Assembly (NCBI GenBank): GCA_934148535.1
Contig: CAKPDF010000001.1
Location: 127,361 to 191,360 of the forward strand
Direction of reading: 5' to 3'
From: an uncultured Bacilli bacterium
GTDB taxonomy: Bacteria > Bacillota_I > Bacilli_A > RF39 > UBA660
Length of the DNA stretch: 64,000 nt
The notes under the pieces: generated by a model
The model's input: only the letters and a program-made list of their open reading frames with translations
The model's database searches: none
What the model was told of the DNA's origin: nothing
Shown: positions 12,671 through 64,000 of the stretch, in pieces
Layout: each line of letters begins with the position of its first letter
Position numbering within the stretch: the first letter of the stretch is position 1
Made by a program: the position numbers and the translations under genes

Positions 12671-13027
12671 TTACTTATTTTTTTCACTTACAATTATTGT
12701 AATGTGACTTGTTTTATGATCATTTCTTCCAACGTGTCCACGTGAGTCCATTTTAGCTCTTTTCATTACTAATCCTTCATCTACGTAACAAGTTTTTACA
12801 TATAAGTTTTCTTCATTTAAATTAAAATTATTTACAGCATTAGCAGTTGCAGAGTTTAATACTTTTTCGATTACTCTTGCTGCTCTTTGTGGTTGGTTTG
12901 CTAAGATTGCTCTAGCTTCGCTTACACTTTTTCCTCTGATTAAATCGATTATTAATCTTGTTTTACGAGGAGCAATTCTTACTGTTAATGCTTTCGCTTT
13001 AGCTTCTGTTCTTTCCATTGCTTTCAC
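12671..13027 (-). CDS. rplV: 50S ribosomal protein L22
   Basis: Conserved L22. Confidence 0.95.
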
Positions 13028-13042
13028 GCCTTTCTATAAGTT

Positions 13043-13312
13043 TTACTTTTTCTTATCGTCGCCGTGTCCACCAAATTTACGAGTCATAGAGAACTCACCT
13101 AATTTATGTCCTACCATATCCTCAGTTACATAAACTGGAATAAATTCTTTACCATTATGTACTGCAAAAGTGTGTCCAATAAAATCAGGATAAATTGTTG
13201 AACGACGAGACCATGTTTTAATAACTTCTTTTTTTCCAGATTCATTCATTTTTTGAACCTTAGCTAGTAATCTTTCGAATACGTAAGGTCCTTTCTTTAA
13301 ACTTCTTGCCAT
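13043..13312 (-). CDS. rpsS: 30S ribosomal protein S19
   Basis: Conserved S19. Confidence 0.95.
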
Positions 13313-13329
13313 CTTATTTCATCCTTTCT

Positions 13330-14163: not shown

Positions 14164-14181
14164 TTTTATTTCCTCCTTTTA

Positions 14182-14457
14182 TTAGTCGAAACTAATAGTG
14201 TTTCCTTCTGCTAATTTTACAATAGCTTTTTTATATAATTTTGTTTTACCTGTATATTTTCCAACTCTTTTATTTTTTGGATGAATATTTGAGGTAGTAA
14301 CATTTTCAACTTTAACATTGAATATTTGTTCAATTGCTTGTCTTATTTGAGTTTTATTTGCTCTAACATCAACTTTGAACGCATATTTTCTTTCTGCTTC
14401 CATAGCAGCTGATTTTTCTGTTATTATAGGTGCAAAAATAATATCGTAATTATTCAT
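14182..14457 (-). CDS. rplW: 50S ribosomal protein L23
   Basis: Conserved L23. Confidence 0.93.
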   Translation of the reverse strand: MNNYDIIFAPIITEKSAAMEAERKYAFKVDVRANKTQIRQAIEQIFNVKVENVTTSNIHPKNKRVGKYTGKTKLYKKAIVKLAEGNTISFD

Positions 14458-15085
14458 TTGTTAGCACCTCCTCTAATTTATTTAATGCAGACTCTGTTAT
14501 TAATAAGTTGTCAGCACTTACTAAATCTAAACTGTTTAATTCGTTAAATAAAACTATTTTTACATTTGCTAAGTTTCTTGAAGCTAAGCAAACATTTTCA
14601 TCTAATTCATCTAATACAACTAATACTTTATGATTTGTTAAGTTTAACTTGTTTAATAAAGTAGTCATTTCTTTTGTTTTGTTTGTTTCGAATTTGATTG
14701 CATCTACTACTACTAACTCTTTATCTGTTAATTTGTAAGATAGAGCTGATAATAATGCTAATCTCTTTTCTTTCTTATTTATTTTCTTTTTGTAGTTCTT
14801 ATTTGGGTTTGGTCCAAATACGATTCCACCGCCACGCCATTGAGTAGCTCTGATACTTCCTTGACGAGCATTTCCTGTTCCTTTTTGTCTCCAAGGCTTT
14901 CTTCCGCCTCCAGAAACTTCACTTCTAGTTTTTGTAGAAGCATTTGACATTCTTGCATTTGATCTTATTGCAATTATGTCGTTATGTAATACAGCATCAT
15001 TTGGTTCTATAGTCCAAACGTTATCTTTTAATTTAATATCCTTAACCTTTTCACCACTTTGGCTTAAAATATCTATCTTAGACAT
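14450..15085 (-). CDS. rplD: 50S ribosomal protein L4
   Basis: Conserved L4. Confidence 0.95.
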   Translation of the reverse strand: MSKIDILSQSGEKVKDIKLKDNVWTIEPNDAVLHNDIIAIRSNARMSNASTKTRSEVSGGGRKPWRQKGTGNARQGSIRATQWRGGGIVFGPNPNKNYKKKINKKEKRLALLSALSYKLTDKELVVVDAIKFETNKTKEMTTLLNKLNLTNHKVLVVLDELDENVCLASRNLANVKIVLFNELNSLDLVSADNLLITESALNKLEEVLTNE

Positions 15086-15142
15086 TATTTTTCCTCCTTT
15101 GTCATCACAACTAAATATTATGTATTGTAATTATATAATCTT

Positions 15143-15874
15143 TTATTCTTCTGTTTGTGATGCAGTGTCTTCTTTAGTTTCTGTTACTTCTGCTTGAGTT
15201 TCTTCTTCATTGATATAAGTAATTAATTCAACTTTTTCATTTACTTTATCCATGTTTTTGATAGCAGATTTAACAAATACTAAAGATTTTTTAGGTCCTG
15301 GAACATTTCCTTTAATTAAGATAACATTTTTGTCTAAATCAATTTGTATTACTTCTAGATTTTGAACTGTTACTTGTTCTCCACCCATATGTCCAGGCAT
15401 TTTCTTTCCTGGTAAAACTCTCATTGGTAACATTGTACCAAGTGATCCTACACCACGATGATATTGGCTACCGTGTCCCATTGGTCCACGTGATTGATTC
15501 CAACGTTTAATAACACCTTGAAATCCTTTTCCTTTAGAAGTACCGGTTACGTCAACCATTTCTCCTTCAGTAAAGATGTCTGCTTTGATCTCTTGACCTA
15601 AGCTATAATTACTAACATCGACACCTCTAAGTTCTCTTAAGAAGCGCTTAGGTGTTGTGTTAGCTTTCTTTAGATGACCTGTTTCAGGTTTATTGCTTCT
15701 AGTTTCTTTCTTTTCTACTGCAGATAATTGAATTGCATCATAACCATCATTAGCAACTGTTTTAATTTGGCTGATAACGTTTGGTTCTACTTCAATTACT
15801 GTTACTGGAACTAGTTTTCCATTTTTAGCAAAAACTTGAGTCATCCCAATCTTACGACCTAAGATTCCTTTCAT
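15143..15874 (-). CDS. rplC: 50S ribosomal protein L3 (with acidic C-terminal extension)
   Basis: Conserved L3 core; ~30-aa E/T-rich tail. Confidence 0.95.
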
Positions 15875-15886
15875 TTTTTCTTCCTC

Positions 15887-16195
15887 CTAATATTTGATTT
15901 GTATATCAACACCGCTAGGTAAATCTAGATGTGATAATGCATCTATTGTTTCTTTACTTGGGTTATTGATGTCAATTAATCTTTTGTGTGTACGACTCTC
16001 GAATTGTTCTCTTGAATCTTTATACTTGTGAACAGCTCTTAGAATTGTATACTTTTGAACTTCAGTTGGTAATGGTACTGGACCACTTACTTCACCACCA
16101 GTTCTTTTTACTGTTGCTACTATTTTTGCAGCAGCTTCATCAAGAATTGTGTGTTCATATGCCTTTAGTTTGATTCTAACCTTTGTATTTGACAT
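15887..16195 (-). CDS. rpsJ: 30S ribosomal protein S10
   Basis: Conserved S10; first gene of the cluster. Confidence 0.95.
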
Positions 16196-16329
16196 ATTTC
16201 TTCCTCCCTTCGCCTATATCTAGTATAGACATAGCTCCGAACAAATTACCTGATAACCCTTTTAAATATTTTACAACTTAACCGGGTGTATCAGCAACTT
16301 TGCACATCTTCGCCATCTACACGATTGTT

Positions 16330-16358
16330 ATTGTACTATATATTTAAAGGTTTTGCAA
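16330..16358 (-). promoter_or_regulatory. Candidate sigma-A promoter of the S10 operon (TTGCAA-17-TACAAT on minus strand), giving a ~125-nt leader
   Basis: -35 at 16353-16358, 17-nt spacer, -10 revcomp of attgta at 16330-16335. Confidence 0.4.
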
Positions 16359-16506
16359 GTGTTTTTTTGTAAGTTTTTGTATTTTTTTTGTTTTTGATTA
16401 ATCAGCGCATAGTTAATAGATAGAAGCGCTGTTATTAATATATAGAATAATATAATAATTATCTTTGTTTTCCCTATCTTCTTTCCTATATATTAATAAT
16501 AAAAGA

Positions 16507-16538
16507 CTAGAGTTTGCTCTCTAGTCTATTTTTTTAGC
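16507..16538 (-). terminator. Hairpin (agactagag/ctctagtct) with flanking T/A runs; likely the alaS terminator
   Basis: 9-bp perfect stem, 6-nt loop, T-rich flank; lies 60 bp downstream of the alaS stop. Confidence 0.5.
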
Positions 16539-16597
16539 TGCCAATTTACAAGGCTGGCTTCACCTGCTTTTTTATTATATTATAAGTTTTTGAAGAT

Positions 16598-19288
16598 TTA
16601 CATATTTTTAATTTGTTCTTTTACTTCTGCTAGGTATTCTGCTATATCTGTAGCATTATTACCTCCACCTTGAGCAAACTTAGGACTTCCTCCTCCGTTG
16701 CCGTTACATTTTAAAGATATTTCTTTTACTATTGTTCCAGTGTTTACTTTTGAAGAAGATTTTGCTATTAGGTTTACGCTAGTACCGTTTATATTTGCTA
16801 ATAGTATAAATGCATTATCTAATTTATTATCTATTGCATCTGCTATTTGTTTTAATATTGTTGTTTCATAATTTTCACAGATTGCTACTACTACATTAAT
16901 TCCGTTTATTTCTTCTTTGGAATCTAAGAATACACTTAAATCACTTACTGATTTTTTTGTTTTTTCTTCTATGTATTTACGTTCTAATTCTTTAATAGCA
17001 TCTTTTAAGTATAATATTTTTTCTTTATATGATACTACGTCTTTATAACTTGTTAATTCGTTTGTGCTCATATCAAAATTAAATGGTATATCTAGTCCTA
17101 ATGTTTTTATATCAGTTAATATTTTTTTGATTTTTTCTAGTAATCTAGTTATTTCTTCATAATATGGCTTTACTGTTTCTTTTAGAGCATCATTAATTTT
17201 ATTGTTTGTTGCTCCTACTAATCTGAAGGTATCAGCTCCTTTATTTTCTAGAGATACTATTGCAAACTTACCAATATCTTTAGTATTTTTTACATGGGTT
17301 CCTCCACATAATTCTACTGAGTCTCCAATTGTTACTACTCTTACAATATTTCCATATTTATTTTCAAATAATGCCATAGCACCTTTTTTCTTAGCTTCTT
17401 CTAATGGTAGATATTCTATTTTTGTATCAATATTTTGATTTATTTTTTCATTTACTTTATCTTCTATTTTCTCAATTAATTCATCGCTTAATCTTCCGTG
17501 ATAGATAAAATCAAATCTGAAGGTATTTTCATCTACCCTAGAACCTGCTTGGTGAACGTTATCTCCTAAAACATCTTGTAATGTTTTTTGTAGTATATGG
17601 GTAGCACTATGATTTCTTGCTGTAGCCATTCTTTCTTCTTGTAATACATGAGTTAGTATTTCTTCACCTTTTGTTAAGGTACCTTCTAATACTTTTACGT
17701 GTAATAGATGTTGTTTGTTTGGTGCTTTTATTACGTCTAGTACTTCTAATTTACAATTATCATTTTTTAGGTATCCTTTGTCTGCTACTTGTCCTCCACT
17801 TTCGGCATAGAATGGATTATCTTTTATGAATATATATCCTTCATCAGTGATACTATCTACAAATTCATTATTTTTTATTATATCTAATACTTCTGTTTTA
17901 GATCCTAGAGTATCATAACCTATAAAGTTGCTTTCTTTAGTATAATTTATTAACAATTCATTTTGAAGATTCATACTACTTTCTACTTTACGATTTTGTC
18001 TTGCCATTTCTTTTTGGGCATCCATATATTTTTGGAATTCTTCTATATTTACTGTGAATCCTTTTTCTTCTGCTGCTTCTTCCGTTAATTCTATTGGGAA
18101 ACCATATGTATCATATAATTTAAATGCGTCAAGACCTGATATTTGTTTATTTGTTTGAGAGGAGAATATTTCTTCTAATCTTTTTTCTCCTGATTTTAAT
18201 GTTTTTTTGAATAAGTCTTCTTCTTTTGATATTTGTTCTTTTACTTCTTCCTTGGTTTTTAATAAATATGGATATATAGCACTATATTTATCTACTACTA
18301 CATCTACTAAATCTCCTAAGAATGATTTTTCTATATTTAATTTTCTTCCCATTCTTACAGATCTTCTTAATAATCTTCTTAGTACATATCCTCTTCCATA
18401 ATTTTCAAATGTTGCTCCATCAGATAAGGCAAATACTAATGTTCTTATATGATCTACAATTACTTTGAATTCTTTTCTTTTATTATAAGGTAGTCCACTT
18501 ATTTCTTCTAGGGCGTGTATCATTGGTAAAAACAAATCTGTTTCATAGTTAGTTTCTGCATCTTGGAAGATACAAGCCATTCTTTCTACTCCCATTCCTG
18601 TATCTATATTCTTACTTGGTAATTCTTCATATTCTTCTCTTGGTACACCTTTTTTGGCATTGTATTGACTAAATACGTTATTCCATATTTCTATGTATCT
18701 ATCATTTTCTATATCATCTTGTAATAATTTTATTCCTAATTTATCTTTGTCGTACTTTTCTCCTCTATCATAGAATATTTCACTGTCAGGGCCACTTGGA
18801 CCTTCTCCTATTTCCCAATAATTGCCTTCTAATTTTACTATATGGGATGGATCTATCCCTAAAGTTACCCATAAATTATATGCTTCTAAGTCTGTTGGAT
18901 ATACCGTTACATATAATTTATTTACATCAATATCAAAGTATTCTTTGCTTGTTAATAATTCGAATGCCCAAGTTAGAGCTTCTTTTTTGAAATAATCTCC
19001 AATAGAGAAGTTACCTAACATTTGAAAGAATGTATGGTGTCTAGCAGTTACTCCAACATTTTCTATATCATTAGTTCTGATACATTTTTGACAACTTGTT
19101 AGTCTTCTACAAGGAGGAACTACACTTCCATCAAAATATTTTTTTAGTGGTGTTACTCCAGCGTTTACCCATAAAATACTAGGATCATTATGTGGTATTA
19201 GTGATGAGCTTTCTACTTCTAAATGGCCTTTACTTACAAAGAAATCTATATATGTTCTTATTATTTGTTCACTTGTTAATTTTTTCAT
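16598..19288 (-). CDS. alaS: alanine--tRNA ligase
   Basis: 896 aa. N-terminal class II core, editing domain with HSATH...CGGTH zinc motif, C-terminal DHHA1-like region. Confidence 0.95.
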   Translation of the reverse strand: MKKLTSEQIIRTYIDFFVSKGHLEVESSSLIPHNDPSILWVNAGVTPLKKYFDGSVVPPCRRLTSCQKCIRTNDIENVGVTARHHTFFQMLGNFSIGDYFKKEALTWAFELLTSKEYFDIDVNKLYVTVYPTDLEAYNLWVTLGIDPSHIVKLEGNYWEIGEGPSGPDSEIFYDRGEKYDKDKLGIKLLQDDIENDRYIEIWNNVFSQYNAKKGVPREEYEELPSKNIDTGMGVERMACIFQDAETNYETDLFLPMIHALEEISGLPYNKRKEFKVIVDHIRTLVFALSDGATFENYGRGYVLRRLLRRSVRMGRKLNIEKSFLGDLVDVVVDKYSAIYPYLLKTKEEVKEQISKEEDLFKKTLKSGEKRLEEIFSSQTNKQISGLDAFKLYDTYGFPIELTEEAAEEKGFTVNIEEFQKYMDAQKEMARQNRKVESSMNLQNELLINYTKESNFIGYDTLGSKTEVLDIIKNNEFVDSITDEGYIFIKDNPFYAESGGQVADKGYLKNDNCKLEVLDVIKAPNKQHLLHVKVLEGTLTKGEEILTHVLQEERMATARNHSATHILQKTLQDVLGDNVHQAGSRVDENTFRFDFIYHGRLSDELIEKIEDKVNEKINQNIDTKIEYLPLEEAKKKGAMALFENKYGNIVRVVTIGDSVELCGGTHVKNTKDIGKFAIVSLENKGADTFRLVGATNNKINDALKETVKPYYEEITRLLEKIKKILTDIKTLGLDIPFNFDMSTNELTSYKDVVSYKEKILYLKDAIKELERKYIEEKTKKSVSDLSVFLDSKEEINGINVVVAICENYETTILKQIADAIDNKLDNAFILLANINGTSVNLIAKSSSKVNTGTIVKEISLKCNGNGGGSPKFAQGGGNNATDIAEYLAEVKEQIKNM

Positions 19289-41398: not shown

Positions 41399-42718
41399 TT
41401 ATTCATAGATTGAAAACTGACCAACTGAATATTTTAGATTGTATTTCTCTTTTGGGTATTCAATTATTTGCTTATTAGTTTGTCCTAAATCTTCTTCTTT
41501 ATAGTTTTCTACTATAAATATACAATTTTCTTTTTTACAGATTTTATCTATTTCTTCTATATACCCAAGGTATCCTTTATATCCCATGTTACCATTATTT
41601 ATTAAATCAAATTTATTTATTGTTTGATAATTTGCTAATTTAAGAAAATATGCATTTGATGATAGTACAAATAATTTTTTATTTTTATCTTGCTTTATTA
41701 TATTTAGACATGTCTTATAATTATTTAAATAGTTTTCTTGGCCTTCTGTTATTGTACGATTTTTTAATATATCATTTGTTTCATATTGATAAACTTGTTC
41801 TTTGTCTGTTATATATTTTAATCCTAATATTGATAGCAATGTGATATTAGTAAATAATATTAGATATAATACCATTTTTTTAGAAATAGTATTTTCTATC
41901 AAAAATACATATACTAAAGCGCATAGTCCTACAAAGAAATGATATTTATCGGCTATAGGGATAGTTATTATTTGAAATGCTACTCCATATAAATAATTTA
42001 TTTTTCTAGTTTTAATTATTTTATATATAAAATAGATACTAATACTTATTGTGATTATACTATATATTGAAAATGTCTTATTATTGTCAGTAAAGCTTAG
42101 CATTCCTAAAAAGCAATAATCAATAAATTGGTACAAAGCATTATTTAACATTAGGTATATCATAATTAATAATATTGGTATTATAAATGAAATAATTGTT
42201 TTCTTTTTATTCTTTGATTCTATTAATCCTGGTATTAATAAGGCTATGCCTATCGTTTGTTTAGTTAGAAATATTAAAGATATTATTAAGCCTATATAAA
42301 TGTCTTTTCTTTTACTTTTAGTTGTGTTAATCTCTAATAAAACTATATATAGAAAAAGAGAAAATAAATTATACGATGGTACATATCCTAATATTATTAT
42401 CGGATATAGCATTAATGATTTTATACCTATTTTTTTGTATGCTAATGTTAACATTATTCCTACTATTAAGGCATTATATATATGAAATATTTTAATACTA
42501 TCATTAAATAGCATAAACATTGGTAATATTGTTATTGGATATAATGGTGTTAATATCATATTGAAGTCTTTATATGGTATTAATCCATGATATATATTGT
42601 AGGCAAAGCCATAGTTCCATATCTCATCTCCTGTCATTTTTGCAATGTGAAAACTATAGATATAAGTTAACAATGTATATATTATAAATACTAATAAATA
42701 TTGATACTTCTTTTTCAT
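41399..42718 (-). CDS. polytopic membrane protein (439 aa, ~10 TM + C-terminal soluble domain), possibly polymerase/glycosyltransferase-like
   Basis: Hydrophobicity pattern only. Confidence 0.35.
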   Translation of the reverse strand: MKKKYQYLLVFIIYTLLTYIYSFHIAKMTGDEIWNYGFAYNIYHGLIPYKDFNMILTPLYPITILPMFMLFNDSIKIFHIYNALIVGIMLTLAYKKIGIKSLMLYPIIILGYVPSYNLFSLFLYIVLLEINTTKSKRKDIYIGLIISLIFLTKQTIGIALLIPGLIESKNKKKTIISFIIPILLIMIYLMLNNALYQFIDYCFLGMLSFTDNNKTFSIYSIITISISIYFIYKIIKTRKINYLYGVAFQIITIPIADKYHFFVGLCALVYVFLIENTISKKMVLYLILFTNITLLSILGLKYITDKEQVYQYETNDILKNRTITEGQENYLNNYKTCLNIIKQDKNKKLFVLSSNAYFLKLANYQTINKFDLINNGNMGYKGYLGYIEEIDKICKKENCIFIVENYKEEDLGQTNKQIIEYPKEKYNLKYSVGQFSIYE

Positions 42719-42778: not shown

Positions 42779-43822
42779 TTATTCTATTGTTATTTGAAAT
42801 TTAGTTGCTGGTACTCCTAAGACTCCGGCATATCCATCTTGATTGTTAGTTTTTTCGTTATCATATTGCCAACTATAATTGTTTATTTTATATTTTGCTT
42901 TTTTATATGGTCTAATATTTTCTGGGGTATAATAATATACCTCTACTAAATCTATTATATTTCTTCCATCTCCAGCATAACCATTATTAATGTCGTTTAT
43001 ATTATATCCTGTTACATAAGGTAACCAACCTGAGTTTTTTATGTGTATTCTATATTTTATTTTACCTATATCTGTTTTTATTGCTATTGCGGTTATCGGA
43101 TCATTATGCCATCCTGCATAATCGTCTAGATTTTTTACTTCTGGGAGCCAATTATACTTCTTAGTTTTGACTTTATAGTAGACATTTACTTTTTTATTAT
43201 TAATATTAGGATTTATATCAGAAGAAATAATGTTATTTGTCATAGTATTTAAATCAACATTACCTATTATTCCTTCTATGGTTCCAGTGGATGAATATTG
43301 CCAGATATCATAATTTGAACTAATACTAGGCCTATTATTGCTATATTTAGCACACCATATAGAACTATTATTATTTTTTATTTTATTTATATCTAAATAC
43401 GTATTAAACCAATATTCATTAGCATATATTCCTGATTTATATCCTAGATTAGTTATTTGATTAGAAAAGTATTTTGCATAACTGGTTAGGGTATCTTTTC
43501 CTAGGTATGTAGTGCTATCATCTTCCATATCCAAGTATACGCAAAAGGGTTTCATACTAATTTTGGATAGTAATCTAATACAATGTTCTATTTCACTTTG
43601 AATACTTTCTTCTCCTTTTAAATTTTTAGCATATGAGTATAGGTATATTGCAAATGGTATGTTGTTGTTTATACATCCAGATACATTATTCATAAATTGT
43701 TTATCATCTTGAGATTCAATGTTATCTCCATAGCCACATCTTATTATTGCAAAATCTATATTATTTTTTACTAAATTCCAATTGATATTTCCTTGATAAG
43801 AACTTACGTCTATTCCTTTCAT
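42779..43822 (-). CDS. GH25 muramidase (lysozyme) with C-terminal repeat/cell-wall-binding-like region, no signal peptide
   Basis: MKGIDVSSYQGNINW...FAIIRCGYG GH25 catalytic N-terminus. Start placed at the ATG at 43820-43822 with a GGAGGTG SD, because the longer track ORF (to 44002) would run into tRNA-Leu. Confidence 0.7.
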   Translation of the reverse strand: MKGIDVSSYQGNINWNLVKNNIDFAIIRCGYGDNIESQDDKQFMNNVSGCINNNIPFAIYLYSYAKNLKGEESIQSEIEHCIRLLSKISMKPFCVYLDMEDDSTTYLGKDTLTSYAKYFSNQITNLGYKSGIYANEYWFNTYLDINKIKNNNSSIWCAKYSNNRPSISSNYDIWQYSSTGTIEGIIGNVDLNTMTNNIISSDINPNINNKKVNVYYKVKTKKYNWLPEVKNLDDYAGWHNDPITAIAIKTDIGKIKYRIHIKNSGWLPYVTGYNINDINNGYAGDGRNIIDLVEVYYYTPENIRPYKKAKYKINNYSWQYDNEKTNNQDGYAGVLGVPATKFQITIE

Positions 43823-43930
43823 TTTATCACCTCCTAATATAGAATAATCTTTTTTAACTATTTTGACTTTGCTTGTATCTAGATAAAAATAAAAATCCTT
43901 AATAAAATTAAGGACTAAATTTATAAAAAT

Positions 43931-44016
43931 TGGTACCAGCCAAGGGACTTGAACCCTTACGCCATCACTGGTAGTGGATTTTGAGTCCACCGCGTCTACC
44001 ATTCCGCCAGGCTGGC
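43931..44016 (-). tRNA. tRNA-Leu (anticodon CAA), type II with long variable arm, CCA encoded
   Basis: Manual fold: anticodon stem GTGGA/TCCAC, loop CTCAAAA, T-arm GGGTTCAAGTCCC, 3' ACCA. Confidence 0.85.
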
Positions 44017-55207: not shown

Positions 55208-56194
55208 TTATTTTTTCAAATATTCTATTGCATCATTAAATGTTTTTATTGAAACTATTTCTATATCATAGTTTTTTTCTTTTTTTACTTCTAATGCTTC
55301 TTCATAATTTCCTTCTGGAACTAATACTACATCCATTTTATTTTTAACTGCACCCATTAATTTGTATTTTATTCCATCTATTTTTCCTACATTACCTTCT
55401 AAATCTATTGTACCAGTTCCTGCTATATTTCTTCCTTTTACTATATCGTCATCTGCTATAACATTATAGATACTTAAGGCCATCATTAATCCACCAGACG
55501 AACCACTTTCACTTTTCTTAAACTTTATATTTATCTCTGGATCTAAATTATATTTATAATTTGTCATAATAACTATACCTATTATTTTTTGACCTTTTTC
55601 TTCAGACATTTTTACATTTATTTCTTTTTCTTTGTTATTTCTTTTAACTGTTAATTTTATTGTATTCCCAACTTCTTGATTTGATATAATTTCTTTTATT
55701 TCACTAGTGCTATTTATTTCTTTATCATTTACTTTAGTTATTATATCACCTATTTTTATACCATTATCTTTAGTAGTTGCTATAACATAACTCATTTTAT
55801 CCTTGACTTCAATATTTTTATTAGCAGATGTATATGCTACATATGTGGCATTGCTAATTGAATTATCTAACATTATTCTATTTCTTTCATATATTTCTTC
55901 CATATCTTCGTTATTTACTTGAACGTCACTCACTTTTTCTACTTTCCAATCTTTAAATAAATATGATAGTAAATATGTAGGTATTGTTGCTTCATATTCA
56001 GTTACGTATAACATATTTAAACTTCCATTTATTTTATTATTTCTATTTTCTGTAGTTATTCTATCACTTATGTCAATTGTACCTCCTGATACATCTATAT
56101 AATATGGTAGTTTTATATTAAATAGCGCTACTATAATGATTAAAGATATTATGAACCATATATCTTGTTTTATAAAATTAATTATTTTTTTCAT
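55208..56194 (-). CDS. SepM/YlbL-family S16 (Lon-like) serine peptidase with PDZ domain
   Basis: N-terminal TM, PDZ segment, Lon-protease catalytic region SGSSGGLMMALSIYNV...GTGTID...GIKYKLMGA. Confidence 0.75.
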   Translation of the reverse strand: MKKIINFIKQDIWFIISLIIIVALFNIKLPYYIDVSGGTIDISDRITTENRNNKINGSLNMLYVTEYEATIPTYLLSYLFKDWKVEKVSDVQVNNEDMEEIYERNRIMLDNSISNATYVAYTSANKNIEVKDKMSYVIATTKDNGIKIGDIITKVNDKEINSTSEIKEIISNQEVGNTIKLTVKRNNKEKEINVKMSEEKGQKIIGIVIMTNYKYNLDPEINIKFKKSESGSSGGLMMALSIYNVIADDDIVKGRNIAGTGTIDLEGNVGKIDGIKYKLMGAVKNKMDVVLVPEGNYEEALEVKKEKNYDIEIVSIKTFNDAIEYLKK

Positions 56195-56257
56195 TGTATC
56201 ACCTTCTTAATTATATTCTTAAAAAGTAGTTTTTTTCATATAATTAATTGTGATAAT

Positions 56258-57190
56258 ATGAAAAAGAAACTTTTTAATTTATTTGTTATTTTATCTTGCA
56301 CTTTTATAATAATTTATTGTATTATTTATAAATCATTAATATTTGAAACTATTTATTTTTCTATGGAAACTTGGATTAAAAATATTGTACCTTCTTTATT
56401 TCCTTTTTTTATTATATCAGATATTTTAATTACATACAATGTGGAAAAATATATTCCTTCTTTTATAATAAATTTTTTTAGTAAGTTATTTAATGTTAGT
56501 GATAAACTTGTTTCTATTTTCTTCTTGTCTATGATTTCTGGATTTCCTAGTAGCGCTAAAAATACTAGAAAATATTATGATTTAGGTTTGATTAGTTTAA
56601 AAGAAGCTAATCATATATTGTTGTTTTCTCATTTTTCTAACCCTTTATTTATCTTATCTACTGTTTCAGTTATGTTTTTTAATAATGAAAAATTAGGGTT
56701 ACCAATATTAATTTCTCACTATTTAGGTAATATAATAATTGGAATTATTTTAAGAAATAAAGCTCCAAAACATAATAATTCTAATAATGAGATTAAAAAT
56801 AAAAATATAAAATTTGGTTTAGTATTTTCTGAATCTATTATATCTGCAATAGATACATTACTATTAATTTTTGGAACATTAACTTGTTTTTTGATTATTT
56901 CTACTTGCATTATTGACTTTCTTAATATTAATTTAAAACTTAGTATTTTAATTAAGAGTATTTTAGAAATTACAATGGGATTAAAAAGTCTTTCTTTAGT
57001 TAATATATCCGATTTGTTAAAAATTGTTATTTCCTCTATGATTATTTCTTTTGGAGGATTATCAGTACATATGCAAATATTATCTCAAATAAGTGATACT
57101 GATATTTCTTATTCTGATTTTTTTATTGCTAGAGTTTTTCATTGTATTGTATCTGGAGTGATGTCTTTATTAATTTGTCTTATAATTTAA
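56258..57190 (+). CDS. nucleoside-recognition (Gate) domain membrane protein, YlbJ-like sporulation integral membrane protein
   Basis: Polytopic membrane protein divergent from the sepM/ylbL homolog (conserved ylbJ-ylbL neighbourhood). Start chosen at the internal ATG (MKKKLFNL), because the longer track ORF overlaps the sepM start. Confidence 0.5.
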   Translation: MKKKLFNLFVILSCTFIIIYCIIYKSLIFETIYFSMETWIKNIVPSLFPFFIISDILITYNVEKYIPSFIINFFSKLFNVSDKLVSIFFLSMISGFPSSAKNTRKYYDLGLISLKEANHILLFSHFSNPLFILSTVSVMFFNNEKLGLPILISHYLGNIIIGIILRNKAPKHNNSNNEIKNKNIKFGLVFSESIISAIDTLLLIFGTLTCFLIISTCIIDFLNINLKLSILIKSILEITMGLKSLSLVNISDLLKIVISSMIISFGGLSVHMQILSQISDTDISYSDFFIARVFHCIVSGVMSLLICLII

Positions 57191-57192: not shown

Positions 57193-57216
57193 AAGATAGG
57201 TTTCCCTATCTTAATA
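57193..57216. terminator. Hairpin (agatagg ttt ccctatct) between convergent ylbJ-like and TasA-like P1 genes; T-run on the minus strand
   Basis: 7-8 bp stem; plus aaaa before and taataa after. Confidence 0.45.
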
Positions 57217-57218: not shown

Positions 57219-58148
57219 TTATGGTGATACTGTAGTTGTTGTTTCTGTGGTTGTTGTTTCTGTAGTTGTTGTAGTTTGAGATGTTACACCATCTTCATAA
57301 TCTCCAGCTGCACCAATTACACCTGTTACACCTTTTCCATCTCCAGAAGTTGCTCTTATGTATCCTTTAAATGATTTCCCATTACCATCAATCTCTGTTT
57401 GGTCATCTCCGCTTTCTTCAATCCATAAAACAACAGTGTATGTTTTTCTTGGACTTTCTTGAGTCAATGTTGGATGTATTAAACTTTCAAATGTCGCTTT
57501 TTGACTTTCTTCAATGTCAGTTCTAACTTCCATTTTTATTTCATCGTCTGGAGTAGTTGATATTTGCTTTGGCTCTGTAACTCTTGTTCTAGTAACAGTT
57601 TGTACTCCACTGGTATTTGTTGATGTTACATCAGTATATACAGCGAACCATAAATTTTGAAATTTGTTATCAGTTACACCTAAATACATAGTTATTGTTT
57701 GTGGGTTAACATTATCATTTATTATAGTATATGAATATGTACTACATACAGCTGAACCTGAATCATCAATACAAGTTGAATTTGCTTGTTTCTTCTTTAC
57801 TAAACATGTTTCAGGCTCATCTTGTTTATAAGTTACACATTCTTCTGGAACAACATATTTTATTTCCTTTTGCATTGCATAAGCATATTTTGCTATTTGT
57901 GCTGTAGTAGGAATCAAATCATAATTAGCACCTGTATCATCTGTTTCAATACCTAGTTTTAAGCTTGTTGATCCTGTTGTAATACTATTTTCTTCTGCTG
58001 TTCTAGTAGATGTTGTGAAATACGCATATGTTGCTCCAACTATTGCTATAATAATTACTGCAAATGCTATCACAAAATAGAATAAACCTCTACCTTTCTT
58101 CTCATTATTTTTATCATTTTGTACTTGATTTATTTTTTCACTTTCCAT
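57219..58148 (-). CDS. TasA/camelysin-like secreted protein paralog P1 (SipW-cognate-type signal peptide), with C-terminal poly-Thr tail
   Basis: N-terminus: charged region + TM + GATYAYFTTS...NSITTGSTSLKL resembles the TasA/CalY signal region (GGGT[WF]A[AF]F.D...NTFA.GTLDL). Conserved C...AVC..Y motif. Tail TSQTTTTTETTTTETTTTVSP. Confidence 0.55.
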   Translation of the reverse strand: MESEKINQVQNDKNNEKKGRGLFYFVIAFAVIIIAIVGATYAYFTTSTRTAEENSITTGSTSLKLGIETDDTGANYDLIPTTAQIAKYAYAMQKEIKYVVPEECVTYKQDEPETCLVKKKQANSTCIDDSGSAVCSTYSYTIINDNVNPQTITMYLGVTDNKFQNLWFAVYTDVTSTNTSGVQTVTRTRVTEPKQISTTPDDEIKMEVRTDIEESQKATFESLIHPTLTQESPRKTYTVVLWIEESGDDQTEIDGNGKSFKGYIRATSGDGKGVTGVIGAAGDYEDGVTSQTTTTTETTTTETTTTVSP

Positions 58149-58239
58149 ACTTCGTTCCTCCTTTATTTATTATGTATTAAGTATAGCATATTTGACTAAT
58201 AAAAATCAATACTTTTTATTAATTTATTTAAAATTAAAA

Positions 58240-58917
58240 TTATCCAGTATAGTTTCCTGTAATGGCTGCAGAAATTTTACCAGTTATTTTTCCACCACTT
58301 CCCGCAAAAAACGTTACATTTCCAAGAAAAGTTCCTATATCTGTTGCATTTTGTGATACTCCATTATCACTTAACCAAATCATTAAGTATAACTTTAATT
58401 CTTCTTTATCTTTTACACTAAAAGATGGACCTAACGGCATATCTTCTGTTGGTATTACTTTTTTATAGTATATGGAATTATTACTTTCATCTTTGTCTAT
58501 TTCAAGTATTTTTCCATTTTCATCAAATAACCTATAGCTTAAGTTTACAATATTTCCCATTTCTAAATTTATCATTCCTGTTACATAATCTAAATTTGAA
58601 TTGTAATCATATATTTTTATTTCATAAATGTAACAAACTGCGGCATTATTTTTATCTATACATGGAGTATTATTATATCCTGTATAAGCTTTCTCTGATA
58701 ATTCATCTTTCATCGGAATTAAGGTTTTAACCCCATTATTTGGATCTGGATATTTTGGAGTTACCGCTAAATTTAACGAAAGACTTGCTGATGAGGTGTT
58801 GATAGAGTTTTTATCTGTAGTTGCTGATGAGGCAATGTATGCATATGTACTTCCTATGACTATTATTACTATTGTTGTACAGATAAGGATTGTATAAATT
58901 ATTTTTGACTTATTCAT
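58240..58917 (-). CDS. TasA/camelysin-like secreted protein paralog P2
   Basis: MNKSK + TM + GSTYAYIASSATT...NSINTSSASLSL; CIDKNNAAVCYIYEIKIYDY motif. Confidence 0.55.
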   Translation of the reverse strand: MNKSKIIYTILICTTIVIIVIGSTYAYIASSATTDKNSINTSSASLSLNLAVTPKYPDPNNGVKTLIPMKDELSEKAYTGYNNTPCIDKNNAAVCYIYEIKIYDYNSNLDYVTGMINLEMGNIVNLSYRLFDENGKILEIDKDESNNSIYYKKVIPTEDMPLGPSFSVKDKEELKLYLMIWLSDNGVSQNATDIGTFLGNVTFFAGSGGKITGKISAAITGNYTG

Positions 58918-58928
58918 TTTTACTCCTC

Positions 58929-59627
58929 CTAAAATACTGCTGTTATCTCATTTCCTTGAGAAGAAATAAAGATAGCTTGTCCAGAAAAGAAATGTTCTAC
59001 GCCTTGCAAGTCGTCTTGTTTTTCATTTAAATTATGCAACCATATTAGCACATAATATTCTTTCTTTTCTCCTGATTTTATTATATCATCTTCATTTTCT
59101 TGACTGCTTTCTACTAGTAATGCATTTTTATCATCACTTCTATTTAAATTATCATCTTCATTTTTTACTATACCAGATTTTATATTATTAATATTAAATT
59201 CATCTTTACAATTATTACTATAACAGAATTCATCGCCATCATAATATATTCTCATAAATCTCATTTCATCATCATTTACAGTATCTAGTTTTAAATATCC
59301 ATCTAAGTACATTGCAGTATTACCGGTATTATTTACTGTGATTTTATAAATTTGACATACAGCAAAGCCATTCATATCTTGACAATTATTTTCTAAAGCA
59401 TAAGCAGCTTTTTCATCATCCATTGGTATCAATCCATAATGGTCGTTTGTTGATACTTTTTCTACTGATAGTCCAAATGAATAGTTTTTTGTTTCTCCTA
59501 CTAATACTTTTTCGGCAGTTTTCTTAGCTGTAAAATAGGCATATGTTCCAGTTATCACTATTACTATTAAAACAATACATATTAATGTAAAATATATCAT
59601 TTTTCTTGTATTTATATCTTTATTCAT
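58929..59627 (-). CDS. TasA/camelysin-like secreted protein paralog P3
   Basis: TM + GTYAYFTAKKT...; CQDMNGFAVCQIYKITVNNTGN motif; 11-nt gap to P2. Confidence 0.55.
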   Translation of the reverse strand: MNKDINTRKMIYFTLICIVLIVIVITGTYAYFTAKKTAEKVLVGETKNYSFGLSVEKVSTNDHYGLIPMDDEKAAYALENNCQDMNGFAVCQIYKITVNNTGNTAMYLDGYLKLDTVNDDEMRFMRIYYDGDEFCYSNNCKDEFNINNIKSGIVKNEDDNLNRSDDKNALLVESSQENEDDIIKSGEKKEYYVLIWLHNLNEKQDDLQGVEHFFSGQAIFISSQGNEITAVF

Positions 59628-59697
59628 ATTTATATGCTCCTTTATTTTCTATTTATATTTTATCAAAATATAATTGTTATTGCAATAGTTTTATAGC

Positions 59698-59721
59698 AAA
59701 AAAACGCAACCCTAAGGTTGC
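59698..59721 (-). terminator. Rho-independent terminator after P4 (gcaacc ctaa ggttgc + T7 on minus strand)
   Basis: 6-bp GC-rich stem; plus A-run 59695-59704 gives a minus T-run; 19 nt downstream of the P4 stop. Confidence 0.6.
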
Positions 59722-59739
59722 ATTTTATAATTAACTTAA

Positions 59740-60642
59740 TTATGCGTTGTTGTCTGTTGCAGGTCTTCTTGTTAATCCTTGGAATGTAGCAGAAACTTCG
59801 CCACCAGCAGCTGAATTGAATGATACAACTCCATTGAAGAAATTAGTTCCTTCTGTAGAATCTGCAGCTGGATTTTGGTTTGTTCCAGTTTCAGATAACC
59901 ATACTACAAAATATAAATTTGCTTTTGAATTTGTAGCATCAGTATTTGGTTCAAGTCTTTGGTTGAACACTAATGCTGAATTTAAATCTCCAGTTCTTGT
60001 ATAAGAACCATCAGTATGTCCACTCTTTCTCATGTAGTTAATATTGATAAAATCATATTGGTTTCCTGAATATGAGTATTTAGCAGTAGTTCCTGTAGAA
60101 TTTAAATCAACATCGCTTGTTCCTGAAGTTGTAATTGCTGTAAATGGATCAATTCCAGTTGCTCCATTTGCTAATGCTGGAGTTCCTGTTAAAGTGAAAG
60201 CTGTTTCATCTGTAGTAAATACTTGAGCCCATCTCATTGTTGTTTCAGTTTGAGCAGCAGTAGCAGCAAGTCCTCCGGTTAAATTAACATATCCATCAAG
60301 GAATAGACCAGCAGAACCATTATTTGCTAATTCTACTTTGTAGATTTGACATACAGCAGCACCAGTGTCATCAACACATGCTCCTTTTGCACTAGTTACA
60401 GCAGCATTTAACATACCATCAGTCATTGGTATCATACCACCTTTAGTTTCATCAACTGTAGTTACTTTAGTAACTTTTAAATCGAAACTAACTGAAGCAG
60501 CATTACCAGTGATTACATTTTCACCAGCTGTTGCTGATGCAGTGAAGTATGCAAATGTTGCACCAATGATAGCAACTATTAGTGTTGCTACACCAATTAC
60601 ACCATAAAATATTCCCTTTCCGTTATTTTTTTCATTATTCAT
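59740..60642 (-). CDS. TasA/camelysin-like secreted protein paralog P4 (Thr/Ala/Gly-rich, 300 aa)
   Basis: TM + GATFAYFTASATAGENVITGNAASVSFDL; CVDDTGAAVCQIYKVELANNGS motif. Confidence 0.55.
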   Translation of the reverse strand: MNNEKNNGKGIFYGVIGVATLIVAIIGATFAYFTASATAGENVITGNAASVSFDLKVTKVTTVDETKGGMIPMTDGMLNAAVTSAKGACVDDTGAAVCQIYKVELANNGSAGLFLDGYVNLTGGLAATAAQTETTMRWAQVFTTDETAFTLTGTPALANGATGIDPFTAITTSGTSDVDLNSTGTTAKYSYSGNQYDFININYMRKSGHTDGSYTRTGDLNSALVFNQRLEPNTDATNSKANLYFVVWLSETGTNQNPAADSTEGTNFFNGVVSFNSAAGGEVSATFQGLTRRPATDNNA

Positions 60643-60717
60643 TTTTATCTATCCTCCTTACAATAATAAGTATAGCAAAATAGTCTTTAAAAAGCAAGCA
60701 CTTTTTTCTATATTTTT

Positions 60718-62619
60718 CTATATTTTTTTTAATATATTATTTTTGTATACAAAATAATCAATAGTTAATATTATTGGTACAGAAAATACTATTGGTAAAA
60801 TGTACCTAAAACTACCATTTACTGGAGATGCAAGACAAACTAACAATACTGATAATAATGGCGCTAATGGAATTAAATATTTATATTGTTTTTTTCTAAT
60901 TATATATAGAAAAGAAAAAATTAAAAACCAATCATAAAATGCTACATGATTAAAGAACCATAAAAATGGAAATGATGCTTGTATTTGATTTATTTGATGT
61001 GATATTTGTCTAGCATCTTTATATTTTTCTCTTGGAGTTATATTTATATAGGTATTTGTTCCTACTCTGGCATCTACTGCTAAGGTAGCATATCTTTCTC
61101 CTACTTCTGGAAAGAAATATCCATAAGTGCTATTAATTAACGATTCTACATATACTAATGGATATTTCTTTAAATACTTTAACCAAATTCCAAAAAAATC
61201 TTTTAATTCTTCTTTAGTTGCATCTTTGTTATAAGTATCTTTTATTGAATCTGCTAAATCAGGATTATAATTATTTTTCATAGCGTCATAGTTTAAAACT
61301 TTATTTATTATTTCTTCATCTTTAGATGATATTTTACTTGAATTATATTTCACAACTCTTGCTACTTGCATGAATGGTACTGTCAATACTTCTTTTATAC
61401 TGGCATCAGTTACATTTAATGATGGTAATAGTAATTTATCATACATTCCAAATAAAATTAAAGGTAATATTAATACTAGCAATATTTTTTTCCATTTTTT
61501 ATTATATAATATCATTAAGAATGGAAATGATAAAATTATTGTAAAAAAGCCATTATTTCTTAAAGTTAGCACTAATATCATTACAATTATTAATAATATA
61601 GTTTTTAACTTGCTTTTAAAAATACTATCATAATTTCTTACTATTTGTACTAAAAATATTACATATAGTAATGTAAATATTGCACTTGGGGTATCTTTTA
61701 TTGCGGTTATTGCATGGGCTGCTATAGTTGGAGTTAGTCCTATAAAAAATATACTAGACATTCTTATCCATAGTGGTACTTTATTTTTTTTCATATAGTG
61801 TAGCATATAACTAAATATTAATAATAATAGTCCTATTTGTAAAATCGTATATATTAGAGCACCTAAGGTAAAATTTTTAAAATGGTTACCTAGTTTAAAG
61901 ATTAACCCTAATACTACAGTGAATAATGGAGGATGATGTTTGTTTATATATACATCTTGATTAATTAAGTTCATTGTTTTTATACTCCAAGATTCATCTC
62001 TGTGAAAAAATTGACTTAAACAGTCAAATGTATCTCCAGTGGATGCGCCTGGATAATAGTTAATAACATATGGCATCCAGCATAGTAAAATGATTATTAT
62101 TGCTATTACAATTTGATATTTATTTAGTATCTTTTCTATTTTTTGTTGCCTGAGACTTTTTTTTTTGGTTTCTGGCTTTATTTTTATTGAAGTGATTTTT
62201 TTTATAATTGCATAGTATATTAAATAATAACCTATACTAAGTATTGCAAACTTTAAAACTTGAGCACCAGACTCTACAATTGTATTTAATGTATTATCTA
62301 TCCTATAACTTTTTCCTATCAAAGTTATTGCAGTTAATATTATAGATATAGCGGCATTTATAAAACTTTTACTAGTTAATTTACTATTATCAAAATAGAT
62401 ATTGTAATATGCATAATATATAAAAACAAATAGAGTTACATATGCAACGTCAAAATCTTTTAATGATAGCCATATTTCTGTTACAAACTGATATAATTTA
62501 CTTTCTTGGGCATAAAATGCCATGTTAGGCTTACTCAAAGTTACTATAAATACTAGTGTTGATAAGGTTGCAAATATTAAAGTATACATTATTTTATTTA
62601 TTTTTTCTAATTTCTTCAT
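60718..62619 (-). CDS. large polytopic membrane protein (633 aa), putative GT-C-type lipid-linked-sugar transferase (partner of the upstream GT2)
   Basis: ~12 TM segments with an interspersed soluble domain; overlaps the GT2 gene by 26 nt (translational coupling). Family assignment by architecture/context only. Confidence 0.35.
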   Translation of the reverse strand: MKKLEKINKIMYTLIFATLSTLVFIVTLSKPNMAFYAQESKLYQFVTEIWLSLKDFDVAYVTLFVFIYYAYYNIYFDNSKLTSKSFINAAISIILTAITLIGKSYRIDNTLNTIVESGAQVLKFAILSIGYYLIYYAIIKKITSIKIKPETKKKSLRQQKIEKILNKYQIVIAIIIILLCWMPYVINYYPGASTGDTFDCLSQFFHRDESWSIKTMNLINQDVYINKHHPPLFTVVLGLIFKLGNHFKNFTLGALIYTILQIGLLLLIFSYMLHYMKKNKVPLWIRMSSIFFIGLTPTIAAHAITAIKDTPSAIFTLLYVIFLVQIVRNYDSIFKSKLKTILLIIVMILVLTLRNNGFFTIILSFPFLMILYNKKWKKILLVLILPLILFGMYDKLLLPSLNVTDASIKEVLTVPFMQVARVVKYNSSKISSKDEEIINKVLNYDAMKNNYNPDLADSIKDTYNKDATKEELKDFFGIWLKYLKKYPLVYVESLINSTYGYFFPEVGERYATLAVDARVGTNTYINITPREKYKDARQISHQINQIQASFPFLWFFNHVAFYDWFLIFSFLYIIRKKQYKYLIPLAPLLSVLLVCLASPVNGSFRYILPIVFSVPIILTIDYFVYKNNILKKI

Positions 62620-63556
62620 TATTGTTCCTCCTTAATGTATTTAGGTATAATTCAAATAACTGTTTTTGTTTTTTTGCTATTACTTCTAAAATCATACCTG
62701 TTATAAATAATAAAAGCGCTATTACTAATGAAATCATTGATACTATAAGTGATGGGAATTTTGGTACTAGTCCAGTTTTAAAATATTCTATAAATACGGG
62801 CAATCCTAATATTAATGATGTTAGTAAAAAAATTATGGTACATGTATTAAAAAATAATCTAGGTCTATATTCTTTAACCAGTTCTTCAATGGTTTTTATT
62901 ACCATTATGCCATCTTTATATGTGTTTAGTTTGCTTACGCTTCCGATTGGTCTATCTTTATATTCTACGGGGATTGTTTTTATTTTAAAATTTTTATCTA
63001 TAGCATGAATAGTCATTTCTGTTTCTATTTCAAATTTCTTTGATAGTACTGGATAACTTTTTACAAATTCATAGCTAAACGCTCTATAACCAGACATTAT
63101 ATCTTCTATATTTGATTTAAATAATTTGTTTATCAGTTTTCTAACTATGATATTACCTACATTATGAAATGGTCTTTTATTTTCTTGAAAATATGTGCTT
63201 GATAGTCTGTCTCCTACTACCATATCATAATTATCATCTAACACTAACTTACACATTTTTTTTGCAGATGAAACTGGATAGGTATCATCTGCATCTACCA
63301 TTAGGTAACAATCAGCTTCTATTTCTCTAAACATAGTTCTTACAACATTTCCTTTTCCTTGTCTTATTTCTTTTTTTACTATAGCACCTTCTTTTTTCGC
63401 TATTTTACTTGAATTATCTGTAGAATTATTGTCATACACATATATTTTAGCATTTGGTAGGACTTTTTTTAAATCTTTTACTACTTTTCCGATAGTCTTC
63501 TCCTCATTATAACATGGTATTATTACCGCTACGGATTTGCTTTTCATCTTCTCCAC
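62594..63556 (-). CDS. GT2 polyprenyl-phosphate glycosyltransferase (GtrB/CsbB/DPM1-like)
   Basis: VAVIIPCYNEE, DNNSTD, DADD (DXD) motifs; two C-terminal TM helices, as in bactoprenol-P sugar synthases. Confidence 0.8.
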   Translation of the reverse strand: MEKMKSKSVAVIIPCYNEEKTIGKVVKDLKKVLPNAKIYVYDNNSTDNSSKIAKKEGAIVKKEIRQGKGNVVRTMFREIEADCYLMVDADDTYPVSSAKKMCKLVLDDNYDMVVGDRLSSTYFQENKRPFHNVGNIIVRKLINKLFKSNIEDIMSGYRAFSYEFVKSYPVLSKKFEIETEMTIHAIDKNFKIKTIPVEYKDRPIGSVSKLNTYKDGIMVIKTIEELVKEYRPRLFFNTCTIIFLLTSLILGLPVFIEYFKTGLVPKFPSLIVSMISLVIALLLFITGMILEVIAKKQKQLFELYLNTLRRNNNEEIRKNK

Positions 63557-63948
63557 CCCACTAACTTATATATTACAAATATTAACGTTGCAACTCCTAT
63601 AATATTTGATATTGTTTCTATTAAAGTATTTTTATGATATAGTTCATACTTTCCTTCTTTAATAATATCAGCTTCAAGCATTCCATACTTACTCATTGTT
63701 AGTTTTACTTTATTTCCATCTTTATCTTTCAAAATATAATCTAAATAATATATTCTTGGTATTTCTATCTTTGTTTTTTCTTTTAATTTTTTAACTTCAA
63801 ATTTTAAATTTGGAAAACTACTGCTAATTATGCTTATCTTTGTATTATTATCACTAACTATTTCCATCTTTCTTTTTTCAAGGTATGTAGTTCTAAAATA
63901 TCTTGCATTGTTTGTTTTTAATGGCAAATATTCTTGCTGATATCCCAT
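63544..63948 (-). CDS. hypothetical protein with single C-terminal TM anchor (134 aa), first gene of the GT2/GT-C cluster
   Basis: ORF overlapping the GT2 start by 13 nt; no motif recognised. Confidence 0.35.
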   Translation of the reverse strand: MGYQQEYLPLKTNNARYFRTTYLEKRKMEIVSDNNTKISIISSSFPNLKFEVKKLKEKTKIEIPRIYYLDYILKDKDGNKVKLTMSKYGMLEADIIKEGKYELYHKNTLIETISNIIGVATLIFVIYKLVGWRR

Positions 63949-64000
63949 TGCTAGTTTCGATGATAATACATAATCTTCTGTATATTCTTCGTTACTATAA

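Follow-up and report, generated by a model that had tools for sequence, protein, structure and literature searches.

At the right-hand end of a 64,000-nt stretch of DNA from an uncultured human-gut bacterium (the window, to whose full length all coordinates refer), a minus-strand locus encodes a family of paralogous proteins with N-terminal signals of the SipW class, together with an embedded module of genes for a family 2 glycosyltransferase (GT2) and large membrane proteins. We put at about 55% the probability that this locus encodes one abundant protein of 300 amino acids (aa) and five smaller or variant paralogs which carry SipW-class signals, are exported, polymerise and are glycosylated by the module. 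We read the paralogs as a variant of the SipW-dependent surface proteins that is probably O-glycosylated; they probably build a fibre or coat on the cell surface, decorated with sugar and of an unstudied kind. Residue numbers given for the family are those of the 300-aa protein.

Four adjacent minus-strand genes in the window encode paralogs of 300 aa (59740-60642), 232 aa (58929-59627), 225 aa (58240-58917) and 309 aa (57219-58148). They share 25-38% identity, and a family profile searched against the open reading frames (ORFs) of the window picked exactly these four, with E values from 3e-122 to 3e-50 that lie far beyond chance (5.6e-65, 2.8e-59 and 2.8e-50 for the 232-, 225- and 309-aa proteins, respectively). 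The original prediction, made from the letters of the window, had described a cluster of four paralogs; that count is right for the window, but the locus is larger. Using the database record of the 300-aa protein, we found the same locus on a 213-kb gut-metagenome contig (L001), where two further paralogs of 220 and 212 aa lie upstream of a gene for a 549-aa membrane protein, just past the window edge, and six paralogs in all flank three membrane or glycosyltransferase genes.

Every paralog in the window starts with a short charged tip and one hydrophobic helix, followed by G-[AS]-T-[YF]-A-Y-[FI] and, about 12 residues on, by a second conserved stretch; farther into the protein, a C-x8-C pair is followed by x-[IT]-Y. 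These N-terminal and two-cysteine motifs had been noticed in the original prediction, and all four proteins contain them. In the comparison of the four paralogs, the invariant residues are T29, A31, Y32, P72, C89, D91, C98, Y101, W248, F269, G271 and G280, and an alignment of 70 homologs gives T29, A31, P72, C89, D91, V97, C98, Y101, W248, Q256, F269, G271 and G280. Exactly two cysteines occur after residue 60 in 169 of 253 family ORFs, which we count as support for an extracytoplasmic location. The 309-aa paralog carries a further insert with two cysteines, and its C-terminus is a poly-Thr tail (TSQTTTTTETTTTETTTTVSP, roughly 57222-57284). Among strains, its length is 304, 309 or 313 aa, and we assume the tail to be the source of these length differences.

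The N-terminal regions belong to the SipW-cognate signal class. The NCBIfam model of such signals, TIGR04088 (34 positions, cut-off 19 bits), gave 20.7 bits for the 232-aa protein, 18.4 for the 300-aa protein and 14.5 for the 309-aa protein, with no match to the 225-aa protein; it was matched by 46 of the 70 homologs at E<=0.1 (best 4.2e-5), and a relaxed cleavage motif falls at residues 25-35 in 194 of the 253 family ORFs. T29 and A31, both invariant in the 70 sequences, fall where a signal peptidase I site (T-x-A↓) has its -3 and -1 residues. Cleavage is therefore predicted at TFA↓YF after A31 in the 300-aa protein, TYA↓YF after A30 in the 232-aa protein, TYA↓YI after A26 in the 225-aa protein and TYA↓YF after A42 in the 309-aa protein, giving mature N-termini at Y32, Y31, Y27 and Y43.

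The strongest support for the signal class comes from related arrays. Genes for signal peptidase I of the type found in archaea and the endoplasmic reticulum (ER), located with a relaxed GSM.P pattern, lie inside or at the end of arrays in six related loci (L037, L039, L043, L051, L052 and L078); the peptidases of L043 and L051 scored 94.7 and 102.9 bits against TIGR02228 (cut-off 51.85), with SipW as the next-best model. Together, the TIGR04088 scores, the invariant -3 Thr and -1 Ala and these peptidase genes bear out the SipW-type signal that had been proposed for the window paralogs, and we infer that the signals are also cleaved in this organism. One of the array peptidase genes is followed by a DUF5305 gene. 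Inside the array of L051/L052 (5801-9913), a 379-aa protein carries a polytopic membrane domain N-terminal to its signal peptidase I domain, and the same array encodes a DUF5305 protein and a 625-aa protein that combines a glycine-rich domain of the ALK/LTK type with a phage head-fibre-like domain. The proteins of 572-705 aa encoded after the peptidase in L037, L039 and L043 have family-like C-termini by eye and were not detected by the family profile.

The helix could also be viewed as the core of a filament, as in type IV pilin-like or archaeal-type pilins, whose class III signals are cut after a Gly ahead of the helix. The helix is highly conserved, and two paralogs do have K/R-G in front of it (KG↓IFYG and RG↓LFYF), but four of the six have K, K, N and N at -1 in place of Gly, Ala or Ser, none of the six has Glu at +5, and the predicted helix is only 19 residues long and then gives way to a disordered linker. 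Moreover, no prepilin peptidase or pilus ATPase was found among the recurrent neighbours, and the conserved T-x-A lies at the opposite end of the helix. We rejected the class III assignment on the -1 and +5 residues and the short helix with its linker, and we regard it as extremely improbable.

The fold of the mature protein was explored with an AF2 (AlphaFold2) model of the 300-aa protein, which has a predicted local distance difference test score (pLDDT) of 80.6. The protein consists of a signal peptide (1-31), a conserved flexible segment (32-52) and a beta-sandwich (53-288) with the C89/C98 pair; in the model, a 19-residue helix spans 10-28, pLDDT falls below 50 at 30-46, and strands run from 53 to 288. 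In the flexible arm, Y32, F33, I44, G46 and A49 are nearly invariant in the 70 sequences, though the monomer model has low confidence at 30-46. An arm that is conserved yet predicted to be disordered is what a donor strand might look like; the corresponding stretch of TasA, residues 28-38, serves as its donor strand (PMC9674648).

The original prediction had also called these proteins TasA-like or camelysin-like, and for the protein body this failed in every comparison. Foldseek of the 300-aa model against the PDB returned nothing below E 1e-3; the matches listed are generic Ig-like sandwiches, and neither TasA nor its type of jelly-roll (PDB 5OF1, 8AUR) is among them. The hhalign comparison of the family with the TasA sequence (checked against 8AUR and 5OF1) gave a probability of 0.15%, and the family profile matched no PDB sequence. 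For the four window paralogs, PF12389 (Peptidase_M73, camelysin) gave no match at E<=1; it is the commonest weak match in the wider family, appearing below threshold in 16 of the 70 homologs (best E 0.0028; gathering score 22.5 bits), and in the two matches that we inspected, residues 12-53 align to profile positions 9-48 of 196, the signal and first mature strand only. One array member beside the peptidase of L078 reaches 21.8 bits over profile positions 2-84. The family thus shares the TasA-type signal and N-terminal arm and is by no test that we ran a member of the TasA/camelysin family; perhaps the two have a very distant common origin.

The comparison with the TasA/TapA/SipW system (CalY/camelysin; PF12389, TIGR04088) shows both sides of this relation. 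The signal class is alike, including the G-x-T-aromatic-A↓aromatic cleavage motif, and so are the N-x-[FI]-x-G-x-L/S-x-L strand after the signal, the archaeal-type signal peptidase I encoded within related arrays, the several paralogous substrates side by side, and the beta-sandwich body with a flexible N-terminal arm that recalls the TasA donor strand. In contrast, the present family has an invariant cysteine pair that TasA lacks, as had been claimed, up to 14 copies per array and an embedded glycosylation module; no sipW or tapA is present at this locus, and the hosts are uncultured low-G+C gut Bacilli. BsaA (TIGR04090) of Clostridium perfringens is another case of SipW-dependent, secreted paralogous subunits that polymerise outside the cell, as proposed here. 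However, only two of the 70 family members matched TIGR04090, and weakly (E 0.0086; cut-off 60 bits), and no sipW adjoins the present genes. The archaeal bundling pili of Pyrobaculum calidifontis (AbpA; PMC9245690) resemble the present proteins by analogy only, as beta-sandwich substrates of an archaeal-type peptidase for which a donor-strand polymer has been proposed; the GT2 of the present locus is closest to archaeal AglJ, and the hosts here are bacteria.

The order of genes and transcription signals resembles a major-subunit gene followed by minor-subunit genes, because a terminator of its own, a strong ribosome-binding site and a higher G+C content set the 300-aa gene apart. We therefore presume that the 300-aa protein is the major subunit and the 232- and 225-aa proteins are minor ones. 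Directly 3' of the 300-aa gene, at 59726-59701 (minus strand), lies an intrinsic terminator-like, G+C-rich hairpin with an 11-bp stem, four G-C pairs and a T-run. Local G+C is 0.33 at this gene, compared with about 0.26 nearby. By eye, its 5' region (60653-60697, minus strand) contains a promoter-like element, TTGCTT, a 17-nt spacer and TGcTATACT, and a strong AAGGAGG ribosome-binding site. The element is suggestive only; its -35 hexamer is weak, which explains its absence from the list of the consensus promoter scan, and that scan found no enrichment of promoter-like sites in this A+T-rich DNA. The 225-aa gene starts 11 nt past the 232-aa gene. At the far end of the array, a hairpin at 57193-57212, terminator-like on both strands, closes both the array and a convergent plus-strand gene (56165-57190). 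Earlier, a terminator had been placed after the 309-aa gene only and the locus had been taken for a single transcription unit; the hairpin after the 300-aa gene contradicts the former, and this internal terminator and the promoter-like elements speak against the latter.

Upstream of the 300-aa gene lie the genes of the module. The GT2 gene (62594-63556, minus strand) matched PF00535 of Pfam at E 1.1e-21 and encodes an MVDADD motif and two C-terminal hydrophobic stretches. Its 320-aa ORF begins at a GTG, and the likely start is the ATG at 63547, which gives the 317-aa form on record. In NCBIfam, every one of the best matches is a polyprenyl-phosphate glycosyltransferase (AglJ, dolichyl-P hexose transferase, PpgS, ArnC and PgfS); the AglJ equivalog gave 212 bits against a cut-off of 325, and no equivalog cut-off was reached. 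As judged from these sequence matches, the GT2 is predicted to be a polyprenyl-phosphate sugar synthase of GtrB/DPM1/AglJ-like kind, and the earlier assignment to the GtrB/CsbB/DPM1-like class is supported at the level of that class. The next gene (60718-62619, minus strand), which overlaps the GT2 gene by 26 nt, encodes a 633-aa DUF6020 membrane protein. It has the GT-C membrane fold and not a transporter fold, in agreement with the GT-C-like protein that had been proposed. D196 and D309 are invariant in 37 DUF6020 homologs, and D196 sits in the model in the loop after helix 169-187. The GT2 matches and the GT-C fold together support the class of two-step glycosylation module, GT2 plus large membrane transferase, that had been suggested for these genes.

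The third gene of the module is cut by the end of the window, which contains its 3' end of about 150 codons (63544-64000, minus strand). The original prediction had described here a 134-aa protein with a C-terminal membrane anchor (63544-63948), a misreading that arose because the window end truncates the gene: L001:5450-7099 encodes a full polytopic protein of 549 aa, of which the 134-aa ORF is the last quarter and whose stop overlaps the GT2 ATG by 4 nt. Exact database look-ups of the 134-aa and 320-aa ORFs gave no match because both gene models are wrong, the first truncated and the second starting at GTG. The 549-aa protein, like its 562-aa counterpart in locus L082, matched PF10131 (PTPS_related) weakly (E 3e-4, below the cut-off) and is a candidate second GT-C-type transferase. 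Elsewhere in the window, 41399-42718 (minus strand) encodes a 439-aa polytopic membrane protein with no Pfam match, whose family lies directly upstream of the major-subunit gene in several other species. It may be another GT-C-like partner; the hhalign comparison with DUF6020 is weak (E 1.4e-3, probability 18%), so this family cannot be called GT-C.

The position of the module among the paralogs recurs in a second lineage. In L082, two family genes precede a 562-aa PTPS_related gene, a GT2 gene, a 150-aa gene and a DUF6020 gene, after which comes another family gene; its DUF6020 protein is 45% identical to that of the window, and the genomic context is different. The module had been described as joined to the fibre-like genes, and its embedding among paralogs, here and in the L082 lineage, upholds that, but a single transcription unit with a TasA-like gene does not stand. 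In L082 and L084, DUF6020 is found together with GT2 or GtrA genes, and a fusion with GtrA occurs in one DUF6020 homolog. L007, from the closest relative of this species, is the only GTDB locus in which DUF6020 adjoins the family. At least 70% Ser/Thr over 15 residues was found in just one of the 253 family ORFs, the 309-aa paralog of the module-bearing species, and the L082 family member that adjoins DUF6020 has a Ser-rich insert. From gene position, we infer that glycosylation of these paralogs is reasonable but unproven.

In streptococci, pairs of GT2 and GT-C proteins O-glycosylate Ser/Thr-rich disordered regions of surface proteins (PMC12041528). Those systems (GtrB plus PgtC2; PgfS/PgfM1/PgfE/PgfM2; PMC12041528, PMC5856776) combine a GT2 polyprenyl-phosphate sugar synthase with GT-C-fold transferases, as does the present module, and the likeness to Pgf extends to two large membrane partners, with the poly-Thr disordered tail here as a possible acceptor. 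On the other hand, the GT-C protein here is a DUF6020 member, from an uncharacterised family for which a literature search returned nothing, the PgfS match is 22.8 bits only, and no epimerase gene is present. Unlike the streptococcal systems, the present module is embedded among its putative substrates.

Several observations weigh against a cleaved, polymerising and glycosylated set of proteins, and the first of these concern the signal. By hmmsearch at E<=10, no signal peptidase I gene was found in the window, as the original prediction had noted for a SipW-type gene, or in the 6.6 kb of L001 past the window edge. Among orthologs of the 300-aa protein, residues 10-35 are almost unchanged while the bodies are 45-70% identical, more conservation than a disposable signal usually needs, and such a helix would equally fit a retained membrane anchor. 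In that case, the proteins would form a coat of type II signal-anchored glycoproteins on a Mollicutes-like thin-walled or wall-less cell, comparable to the archaeal S-layer glycoprotein. The labels of the hosts ('Tenericutes' or Bacilli, about 26% G+C) and archaeal AglJ as the best model of the GT2 also point this way. Nevertheless, the invariance falls precisely on the -3 and -1 residues of the peptidase motif, the TIGR04088 class model itself spans the helix, and peptidase genes are embedded in six related arrays, so that we consider the uncleaved anchor unlikely, if worth keeping in view. Additionally, the body has neither detectable TasA homology nor a TasA-like top fold, and donor-strand assembly therefore draws on the N-terminal resemblance only.

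The remaining counter-evidence concerns the acceptor of the sugar. Most arrays in other species have no glycosyltransferase module at all, and behind the association with poly-Thr stand one species and, from a second lineage, one Ser/Thr-rich insert. More distant DUF6020 genes stand in GtrA/GT2 contexts without family members, so the module could serve another acceptor: one homolog, 31% identical, belongs to a GT2-DUF2304-GtrA-DUF6020 cluster beside an amidase gene with no family member nearby, and another follows mutS. If it did so here, the module would add its sugar to different surface proteins, to a glycolipid or to a polymer resembling teichoic acid, as in GtrB/CsbB-YfhO systems, and its place in the array would be due to chance; the internal terminator and promoter-like sites that part it from the downstream paralogs would agree with this. 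Such a coincidence has to contend with the second lineage, in which the module is again flanked by family members on both sides, and with the occurrence of the sole poly-Thr tail in the module-bearing species. We hold another acceptor to be the less likely case, yet a more plausible one than the uncleaved anchor.

Returning to the SipW-class, module-glycosylated fibre or coat, the following sequence of events may be proposed. Each protein would be made with its SipW-class signal, composed of a charged tip, a helix of 17-19 residues and G-x-T-[FY]-A↓[YF]-[FYI], and exported by Sec; a signal peptidase I of archaeal/ER type would then cleave it behind the invariant Ala. Cleavage would expose the conserved aromatic N-terminal arm of about 20 residues ahead of the disulfide-containing Ig-like sandwich. 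The mature proteins may then assemble on the cell surface into a polymer, fibre or sheath that consists mainly of the 300-aa subunit, with the other paralogs as putative minor, tip or anchoring subunits and the arm acting as a TasA-like donor strand. In this species, the three-gene module would have been inserted into the array. The GT2 would load a sugar onto polyprenyl phosphate at the cytoplasmic face, and one or two GT-C-fold transferases (DUF6020 and perhaps the 549-aa protein) would move it to acceptors outside the membrane, most likely Ser/Thr-rich segments of the paralogs themselves, for example the poly-Thr tail in which the 309-aa protein ends.

The family is large and confined by name to one kind of host. 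A word-indexed search gave at least 1,482 matches, and an exhaustive search at E<=1e-3 gave 1,717 clusters at 50% identity; no functional name is attached to any family protein in the sources that we examined, and neither Pfam nor NCBIfam has a family spanning the paralog body. All named hosts are metagenome-assembled genomes (MAGs) of uncultured low-G+C gut 'Bacilli', 'Tenericutes', CAG:302 or CAG:321. The public MAG labels Oribacterium, Muribaculaceae, Methanobacteriaceae or Methanosphaera, attached to L007, L011, L022, L023, L038 and protein P0097, are almost certainly binning errors for contigs of low-G+C Bacilli. We saw no sign of sporulation in these hosts, and the ylbJ-like ORF of the window has no Pfam match at 1e-5, which leaves the spore-forming background assumed in the original prediction unsupported.

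Arrays hold from 1 to 14 family copies. The longest, in L072 (about 7000-19000), has fourteen tandem family genes, the first ten of which alternate between about 246 and about 239 aa; this alternation suggests that a gene pair was duplicated repeatedly, and such an expansion would agree with a surface antigen under diversifying selection. In L036, L039-L042 and L078, giant N-terminally anchored repeat proteins of about 1,850 aa and companions of 477 and 244 aa are encoded between the family arrays and a cluster of ATPase genes, and in this clade arrays stand on both sides of the ATPase.

This ATPase cluster is a frequent neighbour: the array follows a same-strand F-type ATPase-like cluster in L001 and, across about 30 species, in 30 of 75 GTDB loci. 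On L001, the cluster lies farther upstream of the paralogs (L001:1-3898), just past the right edge of the window, and it also occurs in L008, L015, L037-L080 and L087-L166. In order, its genes encode c-like and b/delta-like proteins, alpha and beta, an 85-aa protein, a membrane protein of 178 aa, gamma, and finally a coiled-coil protein that ends in [IL]PxMG[LM]; a variant with the order alpha-gamma-beta exists. The beta subunit is close to canonical F1 beta, and no gene for subunit a is found in the cluster. The c subunit matches PF00137; in none of the 24 species aligned does its helix 2 contain an acidic residue. The membrane helices of the 178-aa protein are free of arginine (by eye, two sequences). 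In L136 (15546-15779) and L153 (15548-15760), a 70-77-aa ORF directly after gamma begins MLNR[KR]GQTLVEYVLI, which by eye looks like a Flp/Tad-type pilin signal (G↓xxxxEY); ORFs of about 76 aa hold the same position in L008 and L015.

It is conceivable, by analogy and with little likelihood, that the arrays are external working parts or clients of an atypical rotary ATPase. The c subunit would have lost its ion-binding carboxylate, an unrelated small membrane protein without arginine would have replaced subunit a, and rotation would serve not to pump ions but to assemble, extract or move surface proteins by mechanical work. The mycoplasma F1-like ATPases that drive gliding are a precedent for such work. 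Similarly, an F1-like X0 ATPase is required for the mycoplasma MIB-MIP surface system (PMC12994834). In that system, with its Type 3 'F1-like X0' ATPase (PMC12994834, PMC3369863), an atypical F-type ATPase directly adjoins tandem surface paralogs that have hydrophobic segments at their N-termini, as here. However, the present ATPase keeps c-like and b/delta-like subunits, its gene order and accessory proteins differ, it usually occurs without the paralog family, and the family is unrelated to MIB or MIP. The gene set of the mycoplasma Type 2/3 clusters (a 12-transmembrane (TM) protein, a small cytoplasmic protein, gamma, epsilon, a large protein with signal peptide and two TM segments, alpha and beta, beside surface partners) was not found in this cluster. 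A functional unit of ATPase and array, considered on the strength of the 31-locus adjacency, was further weakened by a reverse metagenome search with the unusual c subunit: most of the ATPase clusters that it found precede housekeeping genes, with no family member downstream, and the adjacency is therefore synteny restricted to one clade.

Elsewhere in the window, the 5' end of a 407-aa ORF (42779-44002, minus strand) overlaps a tRNA-Leu(CAA) gene (43931-44016, minus strand). Related proteins are about 362 aa long, and its true start therefore probably lies downstream of the tRNA gene.

In Bacillus biofilms, the main protein scaffold consists of SipW-dependent fibres such as TasA, and related archaeal fibres have been recognised only recently. 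With the present family, the SipW signal class comes to include a different protein body, in multi-copy arrays of prevalent, uncultured, genome-reduced gut Bacilli, and the embedded GT2/GT-C module offers a concrete putative role, and a candidate substrate, for DUF6020. If these bacteria do build glycosylated fibres or a coat from the paralogs, such structures would likely be major antigens and points of contact with phages or the host.

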